IMG/VR virus record: IMGVR_UViG_3300046832_002460
Source of the DNA: a virus
Direction: 5' to 3' (one strand)
Length of the DNA stretch: 15,960 nucleotides
In this document: positions 4,087 to 4,539 of the stretch, piece after piece
Layout: each line of letters begins with the position of its first letter
How positions within the stretch are numbered: the first letter of the stretch is position 1
Notes under the pieces: generated by a model
Database searches by the model: none
The model's input: only the letters and a program-made list of their open reading frames with translations
Told to the model about the DNA's origin: nothing
Position numbers and translations under genes: made by a program

Positions 4087-4539
4087 ATGAGAATCCAGGA
4101 ATTACAATCTTCTGTCACCTATTATCACGGCAGCATGGACTATCTGCCAGTGGGAACCATACTAACCCCTCGCAATCAAGAGTATGAAAAGGATTGGGAA
4201 AACACAGATTTCTATTCTGTGTTGGAACATTATAGACCCATGAACAAGCCAGCACACAAAAACAGTGTGTTCATGGTGACTGATCCCGATGATGTGGACC
4301 TGGCAGGTGGTGGTACTGAGTGGCTCATGACTGTGAAACCTCTGGGACCAGTAAGTCGTCATGATCTAAATTGGAGCAGTGAGATCAGTATGTTGTTGAG
4401 TGATGGCCATCGAAACGCTGTTCAAGCAGGCCAGCAGCCTGGCCAATCGCCGACCGATCGGCGCCCTGCTGCCGGAGTGGGTGCGGGAGATGATCACCCC
4501 GGAGGCAGGATGAGCGCGGAGACAAAATTCGCACCATGA
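4087..4539 (+). CDS. Arr-family (rifampin ADP-ribosyltransferase-like) ADP-ribosyltransferase homolog with an aberrant GC-rich C-terminal tail
   Basis: YYHGSMDYLPVGTILTPR and WLMTVKPLGPV resemble the Arr motifs FYHGTKANLAIGDLLTTG and YIYIVEPTGPF (sequences recalled from memory, not searched). After about residue 108 the frame reads through a 65-70% GC island encoding a Gly/Pro/Ala-rich tail. The track start at 4072 is GTG; ATG at 4087 is preferred, though it has no clear SD. Confidence 0.5.
   Translation: MRIQELQSSVTYYHGSMDYLPVGTILTPRNQEYEKDWENTDFYSVLEHYRPMNKPAHKNSVFMVTDPDDVDLAGGGTEWLMTVKPLGPVSRHDLNWSSEISMLLSDGHRNAVQAGQQPGQSPTDRRPAAGVGAGDDHPGGRMSAETKFAP
4420..4470. repeat. GC-rich island with two tandem perfect hairpins (GGCCAG-cagc-CTGGCC and CGCCGA-ccga-TCGGCG) embedded in the 3' end of the ART-like ORF
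   Basis: Local GC is far above the window average. A palindromic CCGATCGG core is present. Confidence 0.5.

Follow-up and report, generated by a model that had tools for sequence, protein, structure and literature searches.

The region spanning positions 4087-4664 of the viral DNA analyzed here (IMG/VR record IMGVR_UViG_3300046832_002460, 15,960 nucleotides, hereafter the window) reads as the scar of a genomic rearrangement, in which a truncated ADP-ribosyltransferase (ART)-like gene, a short GC-rich filler and the remnant of a release-factor (RF) gene follow one another; we assign this reading a probability of roughly 0.78. It consists of three parts, namely two thirds of the ART-like gene, an unrelated piece of about 95 nt and the final 50 codons of the RF gene, which could be delimited by comparison with four related contigs, L001 to L004. 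The features of the region are the following:

4087-4539, plus strand: chimeric ORF of 150 aa, running from ATG 4087 to TGA 4537-4539
4087-4410, plus strand: ART-like gene, codons 1-108 of a gene of about 147 aa, delimited by homologue alignment and by nucleotide homology to L001 and L002
4411-4505, plus strand: GC-rich filler of about 92-95 nt at the deletion junction, without homology to L001-L004 between 4411 and about 4502
4411-4539, plus strand: read-through tail of the chimeric ORF, 42 aa, out of frame, running across the filler and 28 nt into the RF remnant and ending at TGA 4537-4539
4400-4513, plus strand: overlapping ORF of 36-37 aa (MAIETLF...PEAG), the GC3-rich frame
4429-4444: perfect hairpin GGCCAG-CAGC-CTGGCC, 6-bp stem and 4-nt loop
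4448-4463: perfect hairpin CGCCGA-CCGA-TCGGCG, 6-bp stem and 4-nt loop
4465-4509: imperfect third hairpin
4512-4664, plus strand: 3' remnant of an RF1-like release-factor gene, last 50 codons (ERGDKIRTMRFQDDQVVDHRTNRSISAEKFMQGHMYLLWNNPLFVNNHCR) and stop
from 4678: saccharopine-dehydrogenase-family gene, which follows the remnant as it does in the relatives

The chimeric ORF has an alternative GTG start at 4072 in the ORF listing, and the ATG at 4087 was retained as the real start because the homologues begin with MRIQEL. A search of 5.8 billion clustered proteins returned 182 homologues (E<=0.01), typically of 146-150 aa, most of which match only about 72% of the window query. Their C-termini are conserved (NYWxGxPHxNESVWEYLTPxAxIxxVEEY) and this motif is absent from the window protein, which departs from the alignment directly past ...SMLLSDGH, at residue 108. 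The window copy thus lacks the conserved C-terminal stretch of ~40 aa, in which the W-E of 'VWEYLTP' is invariant, and the tail found in their place (RNAVQAGQQPGQSPTDRRPAAGVGAGDDHPGGRMSAETKFAP), rich in Gly, Pro and Ala, recurs only in P0001, which is the same sequence called in other assemblies of the window lineage. The original prediction, made from the letters of the window, had described this ORF, a switch in GC content from about 4400, two adjacent hairpins, the Gly/Pro/Ala-rich tail and a plausible peptide in a second frame (ORF 4400/4403-4513, MAIETLFKQASSLANRRPIGALLPEWVREMITPEAG), and the description is accurate, all of these elements being present in the sequence. Its proposal that foreign-looking GC-rich DNA had replaced the original C-terminus, the tail being foreign to the real protein, is likewise borne out, as all homologues carry a different, conserved C-terminus. 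Its interpretation of these elements is nevertheless only partly supported, and the deletion and the RF remnant, which were exposed by the relatives, were invisible from the window alone.

An intact version of the ART-like gene was found in L001 (a Logan contig, 83% nucleotide identity) and in L002-L004 (JGI/ENA contigs, 89-94%), in the setting that it has in the window, the same tRNA-like sequence lying upstream of it. By blastn, positions 3820-4406 of the window correspond to L001 1192-1775 and positions 4503-4800 to L001 4683-4982; about 2,907 bp of L001 correspond to about 95 bp of the window. Nucleotide homology stops at 4406 when the comparison is made with L001 and at 4410 when it is made with L002, and by the latter alignment the left breakpoint falls after 4410. 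The 2,907 bp present in L001 and lost in the window comprise the 3' end of the ART-like gene (~41 codons), a minus-strand GGACT-family gene, a 70-aa ORF, a gene of the class II aldolase family (Aldolase_II), three ORFs of 72-76 aa and most of a PCRF/RF-1 release-factor gene. In L002-L004 the slot between the ART-like and RF genes holds only a 76-aa ORF, to which a called 31-aa ORF is added in L002. The deleted neighbouring DNA amounts to at least 1.2 kb, and to 2.9 kb by comparison with L001. Because the distant homologues are full-length and the release-factor piece is a fragment, we infer that the arrangement of the window is the derived, deleted state.

The junction is identical in 14 fetched contigs (L005-L018) from JGI, ENA, Logan and NCBI assemblies, which indicates that it is no assembly artefact and that it had a single origin; an assembly chimera was rejected on the same ground, since four independent assembly sources all contain the junction. 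Over positions 4061-4680 these 14 contigs differ by one SNP only, at 4083, the filler itself being 100% identical in all of them, and the window lineage as a whole is >99.7% identical over the region.

On the right side of the junction, the translation of 4512-4661 is identical at 42 of 50 positions (84%) to the C-terminus of the L001 RF gene (BLASTP, E 1e-32). Sequence searches of NCBIfam, PHROGs and PDB class the latter as RF1-like (prfA NF001859 at 1.4e-45, PDB RF1 chains at 6e-36). As to membership of class-I RF1, the remnant is homologous to the C-terminal region of the RF-1 domain (GERxxKIRTYxFPQxRVTDHR), but GGQ and PxT are both missing from it, which makes it a gene fragment instead of a gene. 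The release-factor part of the chimeric ORF begins at about 4506, and the start codon of a mechanical ORF lying at 4536-4664 (42 aa) was created by an ATA>ATG change. We also considered that the filler could be a diverged part of the RF gene and rejected this candidate, no frame being RF1-like upstream of ERGDKIRT. RF1 genes have been reported in TGA-recoded phages (bioRxiv 10.1101/2021.08.26.457843), and genome-wide recoding of TGA would extend the chimeric ORF past 4539. Such recoding was rejected for the window, where TGA is the stop codon of 5 of the 17 ORFs (two HNH endonuclease genes, a tail-fibre-like gene, an unannotated 85-aa ORF and the chimeric ORF itself) and where no merging of long ORFs occurs under code 4.

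Between the two junctions, the 96 nt from 4410 to 4505 reach 67.7% GC, as compared to 45.3% for the whole window and 44.8% for the flanks. Among all 96-nt stretches of the 15,960 bases the island ranks first in GC, with a maximum of 0.72 for the stretch starting at 4426, and every 96-nt window of at least 0.64 GC starts between 4391 and 4450. This sharp compositional boundary and the presence of two adjacent perfect 6-bp hairpins accompanied by a third, imperfect one are what could be expected of a small mobile or repetitive element, of REP, MITE or hairpin type, inserted in the 3' end of the gene. When the mononucleotides of the segment are shuffled, about 1% of the shuffles contain two or more hairpins of this kind. 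The folding energy calculated for 4390-4545 is what its composition would give (z = -0.47 against dinucleotide shuffles), and the hairpins, though real, stand only weakly above chance. Moreover, the segment occurs once in the window and once in each related contig, it has no exact 20-35-mers in IMG/VR or in GTDB genomes apart from chance matches coding for LLPEWVR, and it replaces 2.9 kb of L001-type sequence instead of being merely added to it. No Rfam family was detected in 4400-4540 and neither terminal inverted repeats nor a target duplication bracket the segment, the only related structure being a 13-nt imperfect inverted pair (4491-4503 and 4543-4555) that does not enclose it. We thus regard an inserted mobile element as extremely improbable. 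The segment is best read as filler at a deletion joint, to judge from these sequence features, and not as a REP- or MITE-like unit. The original prediction had offered a REP-like element, a MITE-like element or a gene fragment as possible identities of the island; the first two fail on the single copy, the lack of matches in collections and the absence of a simple insertion, and the gene fragment fits best.

The case for a gene fragment comes from the frame of the 36-aa ORF, in which GC content by codon position is 0.66/0.47/0.91 (chi-square p = 0.0009), a coding-like periodicity. The GC3 of 0.91 compares to 0.33-0.60 for the genes of the window, and the pattern is that of coding DNA from a GC-rich genome; high GC3 alone is however no proof of foreign origin, because a gene of the window itself (7960-10449) reaches 0.94 over a local 32-codon stretch. 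Judged by base composition and periodicity only, the filler would most likely derive from a protein-coding gene of a high-GC donor, of which it is a fragment. The 36-aa ORF was called as a gene by JGI (P0121, on record for 38 contigs, of which 22 were read, with the same context at 9 representative places) and probably represents the frame in which the donor gene was read, being no gene in its own right. As a separate observation, the gene at 7960-10449 (plus strand) is large, encodes major-vault-protein shoulder and repeat domains, and has an overall GC of 0.53 and GC3 of 0.60, higher than its neighbours.

A donor of the filler was sought at the protein and nucleotide levels. The frame of the 36-aa ORF returned only itself from the 5.8 billion clustered proteins (word-indexed search), and no homologue was found among 1.84 billion representatives by full HMMER search, which returned the query itself and P0122, a repeat protein discarded as spurious since its score was accumulated from seven weak repeats of 30% identity. 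The other two minus-strand frames and the third plus-strand frame, searched against proteins as a concatenate that also held as a fourth piece the minus-strand reading of the plus GC3-rich frame, gave no match; the chimeric ORF's own frame had been covered by the main homologue search. At the nucleotide level, blastn gave no significant match in phage collections and, in plasmids, a best E of 6e-3 over 62 nt of a Streptomyces plasmid, which is at chance level, while tblastn against plasmids gave no significant match either. Exact 23-35-mers of the filler are found neither in IMG/VR nor in GTDB genomes or JGI metagenome contigs. The 20-mer CTGCTGCCGGAGTGGGTGCG has 30 matches, in unrelated genes (ABC-2 permeases, ferredoxins and others) that share only the peptide LLPEWVR, and these were dismissed as chance.

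Filler DNA is known at the junctions of illegitimate recombination and deletion events, and gene remnants are known in hypervariable regions of phages. The scar resembles known deletion-junction fillers in that both flanks are identifiable in relatives, the unrelated joint is short and the region is crowded with endonucleases; it differs from them in that we infer the mechanism and in that the donor search was negative. The ancestor would have carried, in this order, an intact ART-fold gene of about 147 aa, a few small cargo genes, an RF1-like gene without domain 1 and the saccharopine-dehydrogenase-family gene. One deletion, or a deletion combined with illegitimate end-joining, would then have begun at codon 108 of the ART-like gene and stopped about 50 codons short of the end of the RF gene, and the ~95 nt, foreign and GC-rich, would have been left at the joint. 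Imprecise repair of a double-strand break could plausibly have caused the deletion. The deletion event itself is ordinary, and it looks recent in view of the few lineage-specific changes and the near-clonal lineage.

An account that differs from this one only in timing holds that the segment was already there before the deletion: it would be what is left of a cargo gene, an intron or a homing-endonuclease cassette that occupied this slot in an unsampled ancestor, cut down to 95 nt by at least two successive deletions. The variability of the locus lends it some substance: the slot contains six genes in L001 as against the 76-aa ORF (with the 31-aa ORF in L002) in L002-L004, the endonuclease cassette located upstream varies within the lineage (an HNH gene of 248 aa or a gene for a 280-aa protein), the RF gene of L002-L004 is interrupted at GGQ by unrelated sequence, and the periodicity of the filler is coding-like. 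Yet no sampled relative carries a matching sequence and none of the six frames has a protein homologue, and we hold this account to be unlikely.

The truncation removes from the ART-like protein the helix 113-123, the strands 134-138 and 141-148 and the invariant W134-E135. In the AlphaFold model of the chimeric ORF, residues 1-110 have a pLDDT of 86-95 and residues 111-140 of 44-63; it is to be noted that the C-terminal strand in this model follows the MAFFT placement of the tail and carries no independent evidence. Deprived of a helix, two core beta-strands and the invariant Trp-Glu, the chimeric product is most likely catalytically dead, and the 150-aa ORF would most likely be an accidental fusion and a non-functional remnant. 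Over the retained codons, the window differs from L002 by 4 synonymous and 9 non-synonymous changes, a dN/dS that is uninformative on decay; with L001 as outgroup, most of the amino-acid differences between the window and L002 fall on the L002 branch. The 108 codons retained thus show no sign of decay, a state that would fit a recent event and would also fit retained function.

We accordingly weighed whether the chimeric 150-aa ORF or the 36-aa ORF could be a functional new gene under selection, for example an NAD-binding half-ART serving as decoy or regulator, or a micro-protein. The junction is invariant in a lineage recovered from many metagenomes (36 index blocks and 14 identical contigs), the N-terminal 108 codons have few lineage-specific changes, and the conserved motifs YYHGS (H14), TDFY (Y43), SVFM (F62) and HD (H92-D93) are all retained; all catalytic candidates would even be present if the acid were D93, at a position like that of Arr D84, rather than E135. 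However, at >99.7% identity within the lineage the invariance of the junction says nothing on selection, the C-terminal helix, the two strands and the invariant W134-E135 are gone, the tail is read out of frame over unrelated DNA with low model confidence, and the 36-aa ORF is without homologue in the proteins searched. A new functional gene is therefore very unlikely in our view, and we favour an accidental fusion. In terms of annotation, the ORF is a truncated ART-fold gene fused to filler and RF remnant, and it represents neither an Arr resistance gene nor a mobile hairpin element.

Comparison of the homologues reveals an unannotated, well-folded ART-like family that is common in large environmental phages. 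The split beta-sheet fold of the ART superfamily was recognised by structure comparison of the family, with whole-domain similarity to BC2332 of Bacillus cereus (PDB 2AUA, ADP-ribosylation superfamily; BC2332-like family, SCOP d.166.1.6), and Arr was not the closest structural relative. BC2332-like proteins form a family of the SCOP ADP-ribosylation superfamily (PMC3000352), and a template method has predicted that they resemble the diphtheria-toxin group (PMC3024214). The likeness is one of structure: sequence identity of BC2332 to the family is 12-14%, no sequence homology to it was detected, HMMER against PDB chains gave no similarity to any chain, BC2332 included, and BC2332 has 210 aa as compared to ~147 aa in the phage family, the window copy being moreover truncated after residue 108. 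Neither the window protein nor its intact homologues received a significant assignment from Pfam, NCBIfam, PADLOC or PHROGs, and the window protein had no Pfam match at E<=1.

The original prediction had placed the gene in the Arr family of rifampin ADP-ribosyltransferases, based on motifs that do align, YHGS and VxPLGP with YHGT and VEPTGP of Arr-2. Upon profile comparison by hhalign the family and Arr-2 paired YYHGS..LPVG with FYHGT..LAIG and VxPLGP with VEPTGP, at a probability of 7%. Sub-threshold matches to Arr-ms (Pfam PF12120) were obtained for 18 of 59 homologues, the best at E 0.0094, and P0024 scored 14.6 bits over profile positions 1-67 of 99, below the cut-off of 25 bits. The C-terminal halves of the Arr enzymes (PF12120; PDB 2HW2, 9IAF, 9IBA) are unrelated in sequence to the family, and there is no evidence of rifamycin, the Arr substrate, as a substrate of the phage family. 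Model comparison thus supports the assignment of the intact family to the ART fold and not its membership of Arr; the family appears to be BC2332-like and distantly Arr-like, an unannotated member of a known superfamily. It likewise has no sequence-level membership of Tpt1/KptA, DarT, AcrIF11 or ParT/RES, which are other minimal ART-fold enzymes that target nucleic acids or take part in phage-host conflict, as judged with Pfam, NCBIfam, PADLOC and PHROGs.

The invariant residues of the family are H14 (YYHGS, strand 1), F62 (strand 2), H92-D93 and W134-E135, with the nearly invariant Y43 close to F62. The VWEYL segment resembles the E-Y-[IL] motif, which in H-Y-E ARTs such as diphtheria toxin and PARPs bears the catalytic glutamate, and the catalytic acid of the family could be E135 or, by analogy with Arr D84, D93. 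With more than 180 members, the distant ones looked up lying on contigs of 165-462 kb, the family looks like one of large phages, although the contigs of the window's own lineage reach only 19 kb. That the intact ~147-aa proteins form a previously undescribed clade of active minimal ADP-ribosyltransferases of large aquatic phages is a tentative proposal, which we consider possible but rather doubtful. The window lineage would in that case be a natural knockout, showing that a phage can do without both the ART-like gene and its RF1. No partner antitoxin or macro domain was seen adjoining the ART-like gene. Its neighbours (tRNA genes and the RF1-like, PTH2 and PP-loop TilS-like genes) might point to a nucleic-acid or translation-related target. 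In one metagenomic homologue (P0042, 262 aa), a ParB/sulfiredoxin-like domain (EGRHR, recognised by eye) is fused to the N-terminal side of the ART-like one, and another homologue, on L051, has a NADAR-domain gene at a distance of about 2 kb and an Acb1-like gene at about 3 kb; these associations are a possible hint of a nucleic-acid or nucleotide-related target.

The scar lies in a variable region rich in endonuclease genes, with tRNA-like sequences, whose main features are the following:

1044-1178, plus strand: tRNA with an insertion of about 60 nt (Rfam, 135 nt, 44.8 bits over the full model length; ARAGORN silent)
1296-1970 and 10770-11342: HNH endonuclease genes
3070-3816, minus strand: HNH homing endonuclease gene
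3960-4046, plus strand: tRNA-like sequence of 87 nt (Rfam 26.3 bits against a threshold of 29 bits; no ARAGORN call)

The window also carries tRNA genes and genes for a PP-loop ATPase, a vault-shoulder-domain protein, a PTH2 peptidyl-tRNA hydrolase and a tail-fibre chaperone domain. Contigs sharing the scar differ just upstream of it, where positions 3816-4024 of the window face L005 5565-5642 and L006 3632-3709. Some contigs, with L005 and L006 among them, carry a 280-aa gene and a canonical tRNA-Arg(TCT), and their tRNA-like sequence is reduced to its 3' 22 nt, while the window and L007 carry the HNH gene at 3070-3816 (248 aa) and the full tRNA-like sequence. This difference looks like a cassette exchange adjoining the scar, and the variation of the upstream endonuclease cassette among contigs with an identical scar marks the locus as recombinationally active.

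The tRNA-like sequence at 3960-4046 has the anticodon loop TTTCTAC and is accompanied by a promoter-like site at 3916-3943; matches of 79-84% were found in two large phages, Sinorhizobium phage Phosso and Ochrobactrum phage vB_OspM_OC, and the version of L002 has 75 nt and scores 29.7 bits. The sequence with an insertion at 1044-1178 adjoins a tRNA-Gln(TTG) gene at 1194-1268.

The RF1-like gene with an in-frame TGA is kept at this locus in some lineages and deleted in others, and the deletion lineage amounts to a natural experiment on the need for the ART-like and RF1-like functions. In L001 it lies at 4141-4845, lacks domain 1 and has a conserved in-frame TGA at 4246-4248, and the RF1-like genes of L002 (2704-3090), L003 and L004 are likewise without domain 1 and have the in-frame TGA. 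This codon aligns with a Trp of Thermotoga maritima RF1 and a Phe of Thermus thermophilus RF1. At about 3040-3222 of L002, and at the equivalent positions of L003 and L004, the RF1-like frame breaks exactly at GGQ (WFSGTGK, then EHLMCC...) into unrelated sequence, which suggests an intron or another insertion at the catalytic site.
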